Below, piece by piece: positions 30,971 to 45,030 of a stretch of DNA of 64,000 bases. Every line of letters begins with the position of its first letter. Positions within the stretch are counted from its first letter, which is position 1. The DNA comes from Bacilli bacterium. Its GTDB lineage: Bacteria; Bacillota_I; Bacilli_A; RF39; UBA660. Where the stretch lies: assembly GCA_045125935.1 (NCBI GenBank), contig JBGVNW010000068.1:55323-119322 (forward strand), in the 5' to 3' direction. A program made the translations under genes and the position numbers. The notes below the pieces were generated by a model, which was not told where the DNA came from, did no database searches, and saw only the letters and a list, made by a program, of their open reading frames with translations.

Positions 30971-31660
30971 ATGAGTAAGAAAAAAACTAAAGATGAAATA
31001 ACACTTGAGAATTATAAGAATCATGTTGGTGAATGGGTTTGTAGCATCTGTGCATCGGGAAGTAGTCAACCAGCAAAAAATATACAAAATTTAAGAGGGT
31101 TGGGATATGCTTTCAAAGAAACATCAACAGGTAGATATGCAAAGCAGTGTTTTTGTGAAAAATGTGGATGTAATCGAACACATTATATGTTGCTTTCAGC
31201 AGAACCAACATTTGATGAAAAAACAAGATGTATAATCACTCCTGAACAAAGAGAACGAATAATACCTTTATTTGAAAGCAGAGATGCTTTTACTGGTGCA
31301 AAAATTACTACAAGAGCAGAAATTGATCATAAAAAACCATTTGCCAGATTGGAACAAGATATAGATGTTTCGCTTCTTTCTGATGAAGAAATAAAAAAAC
31401 ATTTTCAACTTTTAACACGAGACCATAATCTATTAAAGGATAGAAAATGCCAACAATGTATTAAAACTAATAAGAGACCTTCTTTCTTAGGTAAAAAATA
31501 TTGGTATGCTGGTGATGAAAAATTCACGGGAGATTGTGAAGGATGTGGATATTACGATGGTGTGAAATGGACAGAAGAATTTAATAAAGAGGAAGTAAGA
31601 GAAATAGCACGAAAAAACTTAATATCATATCTATATAAATATATCGACAGCAATAAATAA
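30971..31660 (+). CDS. zinc-ribbon protein with a possible His-Me (HNH-like) finger; tandem paralog 1
   Basis: CSICASG...CEKCGC, then EIDHKKP...QLLTRDHNLLKDRKCQQC...CEGCGYYDG. Co-linear with 31691..32419. Confidence 0.55.
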   Translation: MSKKKTKDEITLENYKNHVGEWVCSICASGSSQPAKNIQNLRGLGYAFKETSTGRYAKQCFCEKCGCNRTHYMLLSAEPTFDEKTRCIITPEQRERIIPLFESRDAFTGAKITTRAEIDHKKPFARLEQDIDVSLLSDEEIKKHFQLLTRDHNLLKDRKCQQCIKTNKRPSFLGKKYWYAGDEKFTGDCEGCGYYDGVKWTEEFNKEEVREIARKNLISYLYKYIDSNK

Positions 31661-31690: not shown

Positions 31691-32419
31691 ATGGATAAAA
31701 AAAGTCAAGTAGATTCGGCACTTAATATGTGCATTAATAACCTCAACGAATGGGTGTGCAGTTCTTGTGCAACTGACAATTGCGATCAACCAGCAGCAGT
31801 TTTCAAGTTGTTGCGAAATAAAGGATATAAATTTGAGGAAACAGCAAGTGGTAAATTTAGTAAGAAAATATTTTGCCCAATATGTGGTAAAACACAAACA
31901 CATTACAAATTGCTATCAGACGATCCAAATTTTGACGAAAATGATAATAATAATGCAATTCCACAAAGACAATATATTAGAATTCAAAATATTCTGGACA
32001 ATGTAGAAGCATATAATTTGTGGAAAGCATCATCTAAACCACAGGTAGATAAAAAAACACCTGTGTCAAGAGAGAAGGATGTAGAAGATATTTCAACATT
32101 ATCTAATGAAGAAATTAAAAATCGCTATCAACTTTTAACACAAGAACATGTTGCGTTAAAAAATAAGGCGTGCAACCACTGCATGAAATACGGCATCAGA
32201 CCTCCTTTTATGGGAAAGAAATTCTACTATGCTGGAGATGATATTTACAGAGGAACTTGTGAAGGTTGTGGTTGGCACGATGGAGCAAAATGGACAGCAG
32301 AACTTAACAAATTACTTGAGGATTACTATCGCCTTAAGGAACTTGAAGATGAATACACAAAAGAGAAGAATAATTATATCAATTATATCAAATATCTTAC
32401 AAGTTTTAAAAAAGAGTAA
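31691..32419 (+). CDS. tandem paralog 2 of 30971..31660, with the DH/HN positions substituted
   Basis: CSSCATD...CPICGK, then VDKKTP...QLLTQEHVALKNKACNHC...CEGCGWHDG. Confidence 0.55.
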   Translation: MDKKSQVDSALNMCINNLNEWVCSSCATDNCDQPAAVFKLLRNKGYKFEETASGKFSKKIFCPICGKTQTHYKLLSDDPNFDENDNNNAIPQRQYIRIQNILDNVEAYNLWKASSKPQVDKKTPVSREKDVEDISTLSNEEIKNRYQLLTQEHVALKNKACNHCMKYGIRPPFMGKKFYYAGDDIYRGTCEGCGWHDGAKWTAELNKLLEDYYRLKELEDEYTKEKNNYINYIKYLTSFKKE

Positions 32420-32420
32420 C

Positions 32421-32756
32421 ATGGTAAACGAAAAACTTTTAGCATGGGCAAATGACCTCCCAGATAAATTTGATGATGTAGATTTCGATATATTCGTGCC
32501 TCGCTGTCAGACAAAAGAAGATTCTATATTTGTTCAAGATACACTTATTAGACACGGAGCAATTCCCCTACATGAATTGATAGCAGGTAAAACATATATC
32601 GGAACTTGCAGAAACGCCAGCGAAGCAGTGTGGGACGGAGAAGAGTTTGTCTATCAGAGATATAAGTGGGGTGAAACATATCCAGAAAAAATTAACCATT
32701 TTGAGAATGATGATGGTTATGATGTGTTTGTCCCAATTAAATTAAAAGATGAATAA
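32421..32756 (+). CDS. hypothetical protein (111 aa)
   Basis: Track ORF 32229..32756. I moved the start to the ATG at 32421 (MVNEKLLAWANDL...), 1 nt after the upstream stop. Confidence 0.6.
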   Translation: MVNEKLLAWANDLPDKFDDVDFDIFVPRCQTKEDSIFVQDTLIRHGAIPLHELIAGKTYIGTCRNASEAVWDGEEFVYQRYKWGETYPEKINHFENDDGYDVFVPIKLKDE

Positions 32757-32758
32757 TT

Positions 32759-32986
32759 ATGGAAAATATTGTAGTAATTAAACCTTGGTTAGAAAACCTT
32801 CGACATGAAATAAACGAAGCATTGCAAAAATATGTTGGTAAAACAAATTCTCTCAAAGAAAGAGAATGTATATATTTGACAATCAACAACATAGTAGATA
32901 AATATATGCGAGAAGGACATTTTGATAACACATTTAATGTTTGGAAATATTTAGATTTTAATTTAAACAAAAAAATAGAACCGTAA
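32759..32986 (+). CDS. hypothetical protein (75 aa)
   Basis: ORF track. Confidence 0.5.
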   Translation: MENIVVIKPWLENLRHEINEALQKYVGKTNSLKERECIYLTINNIVDKYMREGHFDNTFNVWKYLDFNLNKKIEP

Positions 32987-32987
32987 T

Positions 32988-33203
32988 ATGTCAAGCACAG
33001 AAAAGAAATTAATAAAAGCATATAAGAAATATATCCACTTTCTTTCAGAAGCATATGATGAGGCTTTCCTGATAGCAAACGCTCACGGTTATAATTGTAG
33101 TGAAGCAGAGGTTGCTTTCGGACAGCAGTTGAGAAATGATATCCAAGATTTGGAAAATGAATGTGGCGTACCTGATGAAATTTTGATGGATTATTTATAT
33201 TAA
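32988..33203 (+). CDS. hypothetical protein (71 aa)
   Basis: ORF track. Confidence 0.5.
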   Translation: MSSTEKKLIKAYKKYIHFLSEAYDEAFLIANAHGYNCSEAEVAFGQQLRNDIQDLENECGVPDEILMDYLY

Positions 33204-33360
33204 CAAACTTTTTTTTGCTGTTTGTTATCCGAAAAAAATAATTATTATTTTTTCTATAAATAATATATATAATTAAAATTTACCAGTATGACAGTAAAAG
33301 TTATTAATTCTTATGAAAACTTATTAAATATTTCATAAATATTATATATTAAGTAAATAA

Positions 33361-34743
33361 ATGATAACACTGAAGATTAAATATTCTACAACAGAAGATG
33401 GTTTAAATTTAATTAAGGAGTATAGAAAACAATACTCTTCGGTGCTTCATTTTGCTTATAACAGACGATATGAAGATATTAGTGAAAAAGTTATAGAACA
33501 TCAAATAAATTCATTGAATAATATCCCACTTATTAAATCATACATTAGTAGGTGTGCTGTAAAACATGCTACACAGTTGATTAAAACCGATGATAGAAAA
33601 CGAATATTTGGTGGTAAAAAGAATTTTATTGCTCGTTGTAAAGGAAAAATAACTAAAGATGAGTTTCTAAATAAACGATTAAACAATTTATATATTATTG
33701 GTGAAGCAAACCAACATGGCAATAGATTTATTAAATTAAATGATGATTTAGAATCTTTTACGTTTAAACCAACAAAGAAAGATAAAATTATTTTGTCTAT
33801 TGATGGTATATATAAAAGATATAAGTCAATATTAAATAAATTATATCATTTACAGCAAGATAAGCAAATACCTATAACATATGAGTTGGATAATGAGTAT
33901 ATTTATTTAACTTATGATGAAACATTATTAAACAAATTTGTTGATTATAAACCTATTAAAAACAGGATATTTGCTATTGACTTAAACCCTAATTATATAG
34001 GTTGGTCTGTTGTAGATTGGAAAAGTAGCAGTAAGTTTGAAGTTGTTAAAAGTGGAGTTATTAGTGTAAAAGATATAAATAATATCGACTTTGGTTTAAA
34101 AGGTAAATCAAGCGAATCAAAAGAAAGAATTTATATCAATAACAAAAGAACATTTGAAACATACGAAATAAGTAAGTTATTAGTTAATACTGCTAAATAT
34201 TATAGGTGTGAAATGTTTGGTTTAGAGGAACTTAATATTAAAAGTAAAGACACAGACAAAGGTAAACACTATAATAGGTTAGTTAATAATGTTTGGAATA
34301 GAGATAAACTCGTTAATAATATTAAGAAACGCTGTAACATATATTCTATTAGAGTGATGTTAGCGAAACCTAATTATAGTTCATTCGTAGGTAATTTTTT
34401 ATTTAGAGATTTAAATCTACCAGATATGACACTGGCATCTATAGAAATAGGTAGAAGATGTTATGAGTTTAAAACACAATATATAGATAAAACAAAAGAT
34501 AAAAGAAAAAATATAATTTTACCTGATGTTAATGATTTTAATGATAGATATATTAAGTCGTTGGAAGAATTTAATATACCTGGAGAAACCAAAGAATTAG
34601 TTAAAATATATTATTTCTTAAAAAACGCTAAAAGCAGATATAGGGTTTCTTTAGATGAATTAAATCATCTGGAGTTTTCGAGATGTTTTTCAAACAAAAG
34701 TAAAGTTAAGAAAATTTTAATAACAATACATAAAAACACATAA
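33361..34743 (+). CDS. divergent TnpB/Cas12-like RuvC nuclease without a zinc finger (460 aa)
   Basis: RuvC-I is RIFAIDLNPNYIGWSVVD. RuvC-II is CEMFGLEELNIKS. The YTSQ-like motif is AKPNYSSFVGNF. The RuvC-III-like block is LPDMTLASIEIGRR. There is no CxxC...CxxC between the last two blocks. The N-terminus MITLKIKYSTTEDGLNLIKEYRKQYSSVLHFAYNR is TnpB-like. Confidence 0.7.
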   Translation: MITLKIKYSTTEDGLNLIKEYRKQYSSVLHFAYNRRYEDISEKVIEHQINSLNNIPLIKSYISRCAVKHATQLIKTDDRKRIFGGKKNFIARCKGKITKDEFLNKRLNNLYIIGEANQHGNRFIKLNDDLESFTFKPTKKDKIILSIDGIYKRYKSILNKLYHLQQDKQIPITYELDNEYIYLTYDETLLNKFVDYKPIKNRIFAIDLNPNYIGWSVVDWKSSSKFEVVKSGVISVKDINNIDFGLKGKSSESKERIYINNKRTFETYEISKLLVNTAKYYRCEMFGLEELNIKSKDTDKGKHYNRLVNNVWNRDKLVNNIKKRCNIYSIRVMLAKPNYSSFVGNFLFRDLNLPDMTLASIEIGRRCYEFKTQYIDKTKDKRKNIILPDVNDFNDRYIKSLEEFNIPGETKELVKIYYFLKNAKSRYRVSLDELNHLEFSRCFSNKSKVKKILITIHKNT

Positions 34744-34747
34744 AAAC

Positions 34748-35125
34748 ATGAGTCTGAGTCTGACAGTCAAGTTTAATTTCGATTATGTGCTTAATCTACA
34801 CAGCAGAATCAGTTATATATCCGCTATCGAAAAAGATGGTGTTGATGAAGATGTTGCTTACAAACGATCAACAGTTCAGGTTAATAGATATGACATAAAA
34901 TCAATTACAAGAACAACAGAAGGTGCAGCGGTTATAACAACAAAAAAAGCAGGACCTCCAATTATTACAGTTGAGGATTATGATGAGATTTTAGATACTA
35001 TGGAAAAAGCAAATCTTGCAATTGACATCATGCATAAAGAAAAAGTATATATATTCGATAATTTCGTGGTGGGTGATGATGAATTAAAAGTTTGCGACGG
35101 TTGGAAAGAATTGAAAGCAAATTAA
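34748..35125 (+). CDS. hypothetical protein (125 aa) immediately downstream of the RuvC nuclease gene
   Basis: ORF track. Starts 4 nt after the nuclease stop. A terminator follows. Confidence 0.6.
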   Translation: MSLSLTVKFNFDYVLNLHSRISYISAIEKDGVDEDVAYKRSTVQVNRYDIKSITRTTEGAAVITTKKAGPPIITVEDYDEILDTMEKANLAIDIMHKEKVYIFDNFVVGDDELKVCDGWKELKAN

Positions 35126-35132
35126 TGAAGTT

Positions 35133-35166
35133 GATGGATAGCAATCGCTGTCCATCTTTTTTTTTT
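35133..35166 (+). terminator. intrinsic terminator
   Basis: GATGGATAGC-AATC-GCTGTCCATC, a 10-bp stem including one G.U pair, followed by T10. The stem arms are themselves GATAGC/GCTGTC motifs. Confidence 0.8.
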
Positions 35167-35205
35167 GAAATAATAATTATTATTTTTTATTTGCTGTCAG
35201 AAATA

Positions 35206-35237
35206 TTTGGTAATTACAAAAAATAATATTATATTTG
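35206..35237 (+). promoter_or_regulatory. Bacteroidota-type promoter fused directly to a truncated paralog
   Basis: TTTG-N20-TATATTTG. The reading frame of 35305..36042 is already open from 35227, inside the promoter. Confidence 0.65.
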
Positions 35238-35304
35238 TAGTGTAAATAAAAAAAAAATAAATTGTTATGTAACAAGATTTGCCACGGAAGAAGAAAAACA
35301 AAAA

Positions 35305-38534: not shown

Positions 38535-39029
38535 ATGAAATATTTGGAGAAATATATTGAAGAAAAAATGAGAATAAAAATTCTCGGTGAATTAACTACG
38601 AGAGAATGTAGCGAAGGAGATGATGTAGGAGTATCATTAGTTATAGATGGATATGAACCTGGTATAGAAATATGGTATGTCGACTATGCAAATTGGTTGG
38701 AGGAAAAAATTGAGAATTCACATTATAAAAACCTGTTCAGTGGTTGTGAAAAACCTAATGTTAACTATAAAAATATGTTCGGTGGTTGTAAAAAACCTAA
38801 TGTTAATAAAATGACATTAGAAGAATTCAGAGACGATGTGCTGACAGCAATGAAAAATAAACCTGAATCATGGCGAGATGGGCAGTTTGTTTTTAATTAT
38901 ATTGATAATATGTATGGTGGTATAAGACAAGCTCTCCAGATATCAAATGTAGATTGTTACAATAATGATAAACATATAGATGAATTTATTAACGCATGTT
39001 TTTCTTATCTAACGACTAAAATAAAATGA
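38535..39029 (+). CDS. hypothetical protein (164 aa) with an internal tandem repeat
   Basis: ORF track. Internal repeat: YKNLFSGCEKPNVN / YKNMFGGCKKPNVN. Confidence 0.6.
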   Translation: MKYLEKYIEEKMRIKILGELTTRECSEGDDVGVSLVIDGYEPGIEIWYVDYANWLEEKIENSHYKNLFSGCEKPNVNYKNMFGGCKKPNVNKMTLEEFRDDVLTAMKNKPESWRDGQFVFNYIDNMYGGIRQALQISNVDCYNNDKHIDEFINACFSYLTTKIK

Positions 39030-40716: not shown

Positions 40717-41269
40717 ACTGATAGCAACCGATAATGATCGCAATATCGCCAAGAACATAGTTGAGAATCACCATTCTTATGTACCGACATTTAAAAGTGT
40801 GGGGAGAAGGATAGATTGGTTGATTGCTGTCGATAATGAAGTTGTCGGTATGATAGGAATCGGTTCATCAACATATCCGCCGTGTAAGGATATCTTGACC
40901 AGACTCGGTAAGACCAAGAGTGAATATAGGGAAATCTTCAACAACATTGCTAACAACTGGCGGTTCTGTATGTGTAAGAAAATTCCTAATGTTGGAACCA
41001 GAGTCTTGAAACTCCTCCGCCAGTAAGCACCAATAGAATGGAAAAAGAAATATGGAGATGAGTTGAGGTATTTGATTACATTTGTCGGCGGGGGGCATGA
41101 TGGTGCTGTATATAAAGCCGACAACTGGGAAGTGATTGGGAATACAGCGGGACTGCCGCAGCATAAATCTGTTTCTATGAAGTGGGATGATGCTGTCGGT
41201 TTGAAAGCAAAATTTGTAAAACCAACAGGGGAAAACAAAAAGGTTATATTCTTCAAAGAATTAAAATAA
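40700..41269 (+). CDS. DUF4338 (DruA-like)-resembling protein interrupted by an in-frame TAA (41024-41026)
   Basis: NNWRFCMCKKIPNVGTRVLKLLRQ*APIEWKKKYGDELRYLITFVGGGHDGAVYKADNWEVIGNTAG resembles, from memory, the DUF4338 pattern RF.I.P...NL.S.vL......W...YG....L.TFVD...F.GT.YkAaNW..vG.T.G. Both halves are in one frame. Confidence 0.45.
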
Positions 41270-41282
41270 TAATTATTATTTT
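41263..41282. repeat. perfect 20-bp A/T palindrome
   Basis: AAAATAATAATTATTATTTT, containing the TAA stop of the preceding gene. Confidence 0.95.
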
Positions 41283-41294
41283 TTATTAATTCAC

Positions 41295-44923: not shown

Positions 44924-45007
44924 GCAGGAATGTTGTAATAGGTAGCCAAGAGGCACTTAAAATGCCTTGACCATTTGGTCGTGCGGGTTCGAGTCCCGCT
45001 TCCTGTA
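44924..45007 (+). tRNA. tRNA-Leu(UAA), uninterrupted
   Basis: GCAGGAA-TG-TTG..CAA-G-AGGCA-CTTAAAA-TGCCT, then the long variable arm TGACCATTTGGTCGT, then GCGGG-TTCGAGT-CCCGC-TTCCTGT-A. Class II cloverleaf of 84 nt. Confidence 0.85.
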
Positions 45008-45030
45008 CAAAAAAATTAAATAAACTATAT

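Follow-up and report, generated by a model that had tools for sequence, protein, structure and literature searches.

The 64-kb window analyzed in this work (the whole 64,000-nucleotide stretch of contig JBGVNW010000068.1, assembly GCA_045125935.1, to which all positions refer) carries, from ~33291/33299 to 34756, what is probably a non-autonomous, tnpA-deleted IS607 insertion sequence of huge Prevotella-type phages, with a zinc-finger-less TnpB as its sole gene. The element is of IS607 type, has lost tnpA, is inserted three codons into a gene of a huge phage and gives this gene a new start codon. An original prediction, made from the sequence alone, had described positions 33204-35166 as a phage unit consisting of a TnpB/Cas12-like nuclease and a tightly coupled 125-aa partner. 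These limits proved too wide: the conserved mobile unit extends only from ~33291/33299 to 34756 (33296/33299 to 34756/34757 when copies are compared) and comprises a 62-nt left end (LE), tnpB and 13 nt past its stop codon. The parts of the region are listed below, L-numbers being labels of related loci (L004, L102) and P-numbers labels of protein homologs (P0271); repeats were detected with Tandem Repeats Finder (TRF).

33204-33287, forward strand: intergenic and 5′ region of the host gene, outside the element; its ATG-proximal 3′ part (ATAAT.AAAATTTACCA..GT) is kept in the element-free loci L090 and L094
33288-33298, forward strand: original host start codon and next bases (ATGACAGTAAA), left of the element, matching the empty alleles
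33299-33360, forward strand: LE, a conserved 62-nt block in a seven-copy alignment
33361-34743, forward strand: tnpB, encoding a 460-aa zinc-finger-less TnpB-type RuvC nuclease with residues D207, E289 and D355; stop codon TAA
34545-34582, forward strand: RNA hairpin H1, within the tnpB reading frame, 11 pairs, from RNAalifold on two alignments
34623-34648, forward strand: RNA hairpin H2, within the tnpB reading frame, 8 pairs, from RNAalifold on two alignments
34720-34756, forward strand: right end (RE), with 10-bp repeats, the tnpB stop at 34741-34743 and AAAC ATG AGT CTG
34757-34762, forward strand: 6-nt tandem duplication AGTCTG, in the window copy only (TRF: TGAGTC x2.5 over 34749-34763)
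34763-35125, forward strand: codons 2-121 of the interrupted phage gene, the rest of the supposed 125-aa partner, as seen from the uninterrupted homologs P0273 and P0271
35133-35166, forward strand: intrinsic terminator of the host gene, outside the element (hairpin 35133-35156 followed by T10), kept in element-free alleles

The open reading frame (ORF) of the nuclease was found as described, at 33361-34743 with its TAA stop at 34741-34743, and the four motifs quoted for its 460-aa product are all present. An alignment of 63 relatives sharing 33-55% identity confirmed the conservation of the D/E/D site, D207 and E289 being retained in 63/63 and D355 in 62/63 sequences, together with Y339-S-S341, E362 and R365-R366. 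A C4 zinc finger (TNB) located between RuvC-II and RuvC-III is conserved in most TnpB clades. Its reported lack was borne out: the window protein is free of CxxC and CxxH motifs throughout, and S341 is separated from D355 by 10-23 residues with 0-1 Cys in all 63 relatives. Given this short gap and the missing motifs, the zinc finger is truly absent. After RuvC-III, the window TnpB continues into a C-terminal extension of ~90 aa.

Profile searches supported the TnpB assignment in part. Sub-threshold matches to NCBIfam TIGR01765 (residues 2-62, 13 bits versus a cutoff of 47) and TIGR01766 (residues 269-341, E = 7e-4, 20 bits versus a cutoff of 32) fall in the correct TnpB order, but Pfam, including OrfB_IS605 and OrfB_Zn_ribbon, gave no match with the nuclease, and neither did PHROGs or PADLOC. 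A family profile compared with PDB sequences ranked Cas12f first (E = 0.0025), its top 11 matches including Cas12f, 'IS605 OrfB', Cas12j, Cas12c and C2c1 (E from 0.0025 to 0.7), and aligned E289 with the MEDL-motif glutamate of an AsCas12f chain. The Cas12f1-like_TNB profile was touched by 1/63 relatives (E = 0.005). The only match of a single-sequence PDB search, to L11, was rejected as spurious; PF27229 is attached to some nuclease homologs.

The structure prediction supported the proposed fold. An AlphaFold2 model derived from the family alignment (pLDDT 93.2, pTM 0.88) matched Cas12f, Cas12k, TnpB and Fanzor2 over its full length: the top 41 Foldseek matches in PDB were Cas12f, Cas12k, ISDra2 or ISFba1 TnpB, Fanzor2 or other Cas12 types (best E = 1.6e-8; 37/41 at E <= 1e-3), and the leading matches span ~370-510 columns with TM values of 0.36-0.50, as expected with multi-domain proteins. 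Sequence conservation and the model thus support the view that this huge-phage genome encodes a predicted RuvC nuclease akin to TnpB and Cas12, 460 aa long, which retains all three catalytic residues and lacks the zinc finger.

Viral proteins of the same family in BFVD are labelled 'uncharacterized', 'CRISPR-associated (fragment)' or 'putative endonuclease', and more distant matches carry the labels of IS607 or ISCaje1 'transposases' or of TnpB-like proteins from giant viruses. In the cultured Campylobacter phage F379, two products of ~240 aa each (A0A7L8ZJN2 and A0A7L8ZKD0, 'putative endonuclease') share 43% and 38% identity with portions of the window protein; the pair may derive from one copy that was split or degraded, and could serve as an experimentally tractable relative.

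Any guide RNA had been expected at or after the 3′ end of the gene. A conserved structured RNA does overlap this end, near the predicted place. Hairpins H1 and H2 were obtained from a codon-guided alignment of 51 copies and from an independent MAFFT alignment of 45 copies. The loop of H1, TTGGAAGAA, is identical in 45/45 diverse copies, even in synonymous codon choice. Pairing is maintained in 91.5% of cells versus 70.4 +/- 1.0% in shuffled alignments (a figure attained by 0/500 shuffles), the covariation score amounts to 0.531 versus 0.163 for shuffles and 0.08-0.11 for slid partners, and double-sided (compensatory) changes occur in 16/19 pairs. Since the paired positions join codon positions 3-1, 1-3 and 2-2, coding constraint cannot yield such a pattern. 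The excess of G.U cells (50) over A.C cells (28) mildly favors the sense strand as the one that would fold. Synonymous-codon identity in the last ~90 codons amounts to 0.87-0.95 versus 0.69-0.85, and to 0.80-0.88 versus 0.60-0.78 in a second, independent subfamily. Folded as a single sequence, the 3′ region shows modest stability (z = -1.8) and a minimum free energy structure unlike the one supported by covariation. Lying 110-210 nt upstream of the element end, H1 and H2 would suit a candidate omega/right-end element RNA (omegaRNA/reRNA) scaffold, which would run on to RE at 34756.

The fold and the hairpins bear together on another explanation, according to which the protein is a guide-independent, structure-specific nuclease of RuvC type (a resolvase or a homing endonuclease) and the hairpins are recombinase sites or features of mRNA stability or translational control. 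RuvC resolvases indeed appear among the weaker Foldseek matches (E ~2-4e-3), the zinc-finger/TNB module is lost and no known omegaRNA family is matched; however, the similarity to TnpB and Cas12f is full-length, including the N-terminal WED/REC-like half, and is not confined to a 150-aa resolvase, while the hairpins covary, with G.U above A.C, at the very distance from the element end where TnpB scaffolds lie. We consider this explanation unlikely.

With regard to transposition, tblastn detected no transposase gene in the 64-kb window, so the statement that none stands beside the nuclease holds for this copy; it does not hold for sibling copies, which carry an IS607 serine-recombinase tnpA. 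In L102, which was found by probing metagenome contigs with the RE sequence (a probe giving mostly chance 17-mer matches, 6/80 fetched loci being real), tnpB, whose product is 87% identical to that of the window, is preceded by an ORF of 202 aa, the two genes having 20 nt in common. This ORF corresponds to NF033518 'IS607 family transposase' (E = 3.7e-49, 167 bits versus a cutoff of 110) and carries Resolvase and MerR domains, and its homologs abut the nuclease gene in ~18 fetched, more distant loci, including Lak-A1. The window LE and the LE preceding tnpA in L102, an autonomous sibling, share 69% identity over 83-95 nt (blastn). Both ends of the window element contain TRF repeats with a 10-bp period, CTTATGAAAA x1.9 at 33310-33328 in LE and ATAAAAACAC x2.9 at 34720-34748 in RE, whose units have a similar core, and no clean terminal inverted repeat (TIR) was found at the element tips. 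The sibling tnpA, the homologous LE and the repeat ends without TIRs thus identify the window element as a tnpA-less IS607 derivative organized as LE-tnpB-RE. In place of a stand-alone phage effector, as initially proposed, the nuclease represents the TnpB of an IS607-family insertion sequence that is itself non-autonomous and has tnpA-bearing siblings.

A left-end hairpin, TTATGAAA..TTTCATAA, was considered as an IS605-type single-stranded DNA hairpin and rejected, as it was no better than shuffles (z = -0.15). In unrelated contexts, L088 and L089 share the left flank ATGAAAGCAA(A), which matches the first bases of the L102 tnpA (ATGAAAGCAAAAG); this flank may be a remnant of the tnpA deletion or have been carried over.

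Analysis of the distribution revealed a large and multicopy family, with at least 2,663 matching 90%-identity clusters and 1,046 50%-identity clusters at E <= 1e-3. Among phage records, the nearest belong to Lak megaphages of Prevotella, whose genomes each hold several nuclease copies, and huge-phage contigs of IMG/VR hold up to 7 or more copies; these were retrieved by an alignment-based search, the single window protein as query returning nothing from IMG/VR. The window protein and an 89%-identical paralog occur on the same NCBI contig, and the source genome therefore probably holds at least two copies. The family is present both in standard-code phages and in TAG-recoded Lak phages. Lak-type copies (L001-L003, L010, L017, L019, L028, L035) have 8-15 TAG codons in frame, and their genes stay open only where TAG is a sense codon; the standard code applies to the window copy and to several IMG/VR subfamilies, TAG terminating only 4/80 long ORFs of the window.

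Comparison of copies defined the element edges. The L004 copy, 89% identical and flanked by DnaJ and YqeY/ClpP genes on a contig of 380 kb, shares with the window a single high-scoring segment pair at the DNA level, corresponding to window 33296-34757. The seven-copy alignment of the window subfamily has sharp edges, the right one reading TAA-AAAC-ATG-AGT-CTG-(A); RE is identical in at least 7 copies and homology stops at 34757. In paralogs of other subfamilies (IMG/VR, Lak), similarity is limited to the ORF with ~70-120 nt before it and 15-70 nt after it. Another member of the window subfamily, L169 (JAEIGA010602202.1, 317-1703), is frameshifted near residue 300; it is a decaying copy, in line with selfish-element dynamics.

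Multiple copies, sharp ends and presence/absence polymorphism point to selfish mobility and give no indication of a conflict role, as had been envisaged, or of a defence role. They also render quite improbable a domesticated or immobile TnpB derivative, no longer selfish and put to use by the phage for RNA-guided regulation or cleavage, in the manner of TldR or Cas12. Many 85-92%-identical copies at unrelated sites, one of them frameshifted, are the opposite of the fixed, syntenic single copy that such a derivative would form; no CRISPR-like array was found in the 28-40 kb part of the window (+/-6 kb); and the triad is fully conserved, unlike in the nuclease-dead TldR proteins presented in PMC10705468 and PMC13418256. 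The TnpB exaptation in phages that is documented there and the missing tnpA in the window speak for domestication.

The 125-aa ORF (34748-35125) does start 4 nt after the nuclease stop, in another frame than tnpB, yet it is not a coupled partner but an unrelated phage gene into which the element has inserted immediately behind the ATG. First, in 5/6 other aligned copies (85-92% identity), a different, unrelated ORF of 98-170 aa lies 4 nt past the stop, and the downstream ORFs of 98, 117, 125, 162/164 and 170 aa share only their first three codons, M-S/G-L. Secondly, element-free homologs of the 125-aa protein start with MTVKFNFDY (P0273, 92% identity) or MRVKFNFDY (P0271); P0272 starts with MSL-RVKFNFDY. 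Thirdly, the homolog loci L090, L091 and L094 are without the element, and L090 and L091 match the window at 96-97% on both flanks, up to 32749 and again from 34758. The alleles read as follows:

Empty allele, L094: ..GGT ATG ACA GTT AAG TTT..
Empty allele, L090: ..GGT ATG AGA GTC AAG TTT..
Left junction, window: ..AGT ATG ACA GTA AA, then LE
Right junction, window: ..AAAC ATG AGT CTG AGT CTG ACA GTC AAG TTT..
Right junction, L093 (same site in another phage): ..AAAC ATG AGT CTG AGA GTC AAG..

From the empty and occupied alleles, it follows that the element interrupts the gene at its start codon and that RE supplies a new one, the ATG at 34748, which changes the N-terminal M into MSL. In the window copy, the host protein starts with MSLSL, the additional 'SL' arising from the AGTCTG duplication, which is missing from L093 at the same site. 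At the sequence level, a second site confirms this predicted replacement: the ORF downstream of the L085 copy starts with MSL-IQKYSSF.., and 115/116 of its homologs start with MI(Q/K/H/R).. or MTIQ...

The flanking signals attributed to the nuclease unit likewise belong to the host gene. The upstream spacer, thought to be the unit's own, is conserved in element-free alleles, so it is part of the interrupted gene; it was also said to be without the standard promoter, and the palindromic intergenic motif that recurs in this phage lies there, at 33232-33253. The terminator predicted to close the unit is real, with its hairpin at 35133-35156 and T10, but it terminates the host gene (L090 2999-3504 matches window 34758-35266 at 96.7%). 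In every copy of the subfamily, the host ATG, 5-6 nt and an A-run stand just before the left end, and in the window the old host ATG opens a 16-codon mini-ORF (33288-33338, MTVKVINSYENLLNIS*) that stops within LE.

A dedicated two-gene effector, RNA-guided or partner-assisted, acting in phage-host or phage-phage conflict is hardly credible despite the 4-nt spacing of the ORFs, their common terminator and a nuclease catalytically intact by sequence, since the downstream ORF changes in every copy with M-S/G-L alone in common, the 125-aa gene stands alone with its own ATG in 96%-identical phages, PADLOC gave no match and no homolog of the partner was found near the Lak copies of the nuclease; as regards the partner, it is already refuted. 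That TAG recoding might join the two ORFs, by read-through or as a fusion, was also rejected, the stop codon being TAA and the frames different.

Examination of the junctions within the window subfamily revealed a constant target. Left flanks carry T-ATG in 10/10 cases and T-ATG-A in 9/10 (L087 has T after the ATG), and all right flanks start with A after ..CTG. Despite differing right flanks, L004, L165 and L169 share the left junction TA[TG]AATTAAAAAGTTA, of which L114 has a near-variant. These sequences are consistent with a crossover by the serine recombinase at TG within the host start codon, without duplication: the left product would be host ..TA + TG + LE, giving the mini-ORF ATG AAT TAA, and the right product RE ..ATGAGTC + TG + host codon 2. 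The RE of the L005/L009 subfamily has ATG AAT GAT ARA AAG CAA YAT YTG, and that of the L014 group ends with ..ACA(A/G)TG in most copies, the terminal ATG opening ORFs of 744 aa (L083) and 160 aa (L064); judging by these ends, both subfamilies follow the same start-codon logic. Other subfamilies, including the Lak group, have different ends and are located between genes.

A scheme for the maintenance of the element can be proposed, in which we infer the guide, the transposon-adjacent motif (TAM), the homing and the coupled restart. The promoter of the interrupted gene would transcribe the element, and ribosomes would translate the 16-codon mini-ORF, then tnpB, and re-initiate on the host gene, making the insertion nearly harmless. 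TnpB would bind an omega/reRNA originating from the 3′ end of its own mRNA, composed of a scaffold (~34545-34756) and a guide of ~16-20 nt provided by the flank from 34757 onward. The complex would cut empty alleles beside a start-codon TAM (~TATG) in sister or co-infecting genomes, and recombination after the cut would copy the element into the empty allele (homing). Fresh transposition would rely on TnpA acting in trans, with a crossover at the start-codon TG.

As a whole, we tentatively put forward a large megaphage lineage of zinc-finger-less IS607-type TnpBs that would use the start codon (~TATG) both as TAM and as insertion site, would spare the genes colonised at their 5′ end by a built-in replacement start codon, and whose tnpA-less copies would pass from one co-infecting phage to another by RNA-guided homing; its guide RNAs would form a new class of omegaRNA, and its nuclease, a compact one, would recognize an A/T-rich TAM. 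This combination of claims is less likely than not to hold.

Several observations weigh against the IS607 assignment or the scheme built on it. In the window, L085 and L087 copies, host sequence of 8-11 bp borders the element at both ends, the left junction consisting of host codons up to the A-run followed by LE, which a simple serine-recombinase crossover does not explain; crossovers at other dinucleotides were tried and none reproduced both junctions. Repair primed by microhomology in the course of homing could be the cause, or else a preference for targets resembling the start of LE. The element ends with ..CTG (..GTCTG) and its left flank with ..TATG, versus the GG of canonical IS607. The 6-nt duplication would shift a flank-derived guide of the window copy by 6 nt, out of register with the empty allele, and this copy may be unable to home. 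Cleavage of the mRNA into omegaRNA would hurt expression of the downstream host gene, and coupled expression is not certain. The nuclease has no Pfam match and scores below the curated cutoffs of the NCBIfam TnpB profiles, and, as the zinc-finger/TNB module of most TnpB clades is absent, nuclease activity cannot be assumed. Finally, a search of Rfam at E <= 1 returned no match, whether to RAGATH-18, another known omegaRNA or an intron.

Characterised IS607 TnpBs are reRNA-guided nucleases with AGGAG or GAGGG as TAM (PMC11061315), the AGGAG TAM mirroring the insertion site (PMC11061315, PMC13565253), and IS607 elements insert at GG, have GG ends and show neither TIRs nor target-site duplications (PMC13565253). 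Like these systems, for example ISFba1 with its RAGATH-18 reRNA (PMC11061315), the present family combines an NF033518 TnpA overlapping tnpB (in sibling copies), ends with short repeat units and no TIRs (PMC13565253), a D/E/D RuvC site, a structured RNA at the 3′ end and insertion at a translation-initiation signal, which is the AGGAG TAM there and ATG here. It differs by the loss of tnpA in the window copy, the lack of a RAGATH-18 match and of a zinc finger, the ..CTG ends and TATG insertion in place of GG, the ~90-aa extension past RuvC-III, the replacement start codon given by RE and, in some copies, an 8-10 bp duplication of host sequence. Start-codon targeting parallels the Shine-Dalgarno-like AGGAG TAM of characterised IS607 TnpBs.

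ISDra2/IS200-IS605 TnpB and Cas12f (PDB 8exa, 8h1j, 8j1j, 7wju and other entries) are likewise small proteins with RuvC motifs in the same order, and their overall fold is shared, with a Foldseek probability of 1.0 over ~400 columns. Sequence identity is 10-16%, however, no C4 zinc finger/TNB is found between YSS and RuvC-III, the associated enzyme is a serine recombinase and not a Y1 transposase, and there is no CRISPR array. The virus-enriched TnpB clade RIIIr-4, which has no zinc finger and in which the RuvC-III Asp is replaced by His (Altae-Tran et al. 2023, PMC10691335), shares with the present family the missing C4 zinc finger and the viral occurrence. It includes MazE-associated members, whereas serine recombinases are found here and D355 is kept in 62/63 relatives, which places the family outside the RIIIr-4 definition. 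IStrons, combining IS605 or IS607 with a group I intron, are likewise TnpB elements that avoid inactivating the gene they interrupt; there, RNA splicing restores the gene, whereas here a new start codon and a translational restart apparently do so, no intron having been found in Rfam. If true, the start-codon site with its replacement ATG would give TnpB elements another means, next to IStron splicing, of residing within genes where coding density is high.

Zinc-finger loss in TnpB branches and the occurrence of TnpB in phages (PMC12607003) are both published. Start-codon targeting with start-codon replacement appears undescribed, no description having been found in a limited literature search, and the Lak-phage literature covered by a similarly limited search does not mention TnpB. 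Proteins of the family number in the thousands in gut metagenomes, with labels, where seen, such as 'uncharacterized protein', 'putative endonuclease' or 'CRISPR-associated fragment'; they can be annotated as TnpBs encoded by an IS607-type element, of which Lak-type and other huge phages carry multiple copies. The 460-aa predicted nuclease, with no zinc finger, a new putative guide-RNA scaffold and possibly an A/T-rich TAM, is also a candidate tool.

Other features were recorded in the window. The palindromic intergenic motif AAAAATAATTATTATTTTT occurs at more than 40 sites on both strands, for example at 33232-33253, 35168-35188 and 41263-41287, and a second motif, AATATTATATTTGTAGTG, which resembles the Bacteroidetes TAnnTTTG -7 box, at no fewer than 6 sites including 35226-35246; they are probably the standard terminator and promoter signals of the phage. 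Upstream of the interrupted gene, a variable spot separates two conserved genes (window 32750-33287, L090 2656-2998, L094 716-784): the window has two extra small genes at 32759-32986 and 32988-33203, L090 has 343 nt of unrelated sequence and L094 only 69 nt. A 42-nt unit is present in two tandem copies with 90% identity at 38724-38806, and a tRNA-Leu (anticodon TAA), the sole tRNA of the window, lies at 44924-45008. Two tandem paralogous genes (30971-31660 and 31691-32419) encode proteins of 229 and 242 aa resembling type II restriction endonucleases of the IceA/NlaIII type (Pfam ICEA, E = 1.9e-8; PADLOC REase_II, E = 7.5e-16 and 6.6e-10), each with N-terminal Cys-rich motifs, and this pair is conserved in the related phages L090 and L091.

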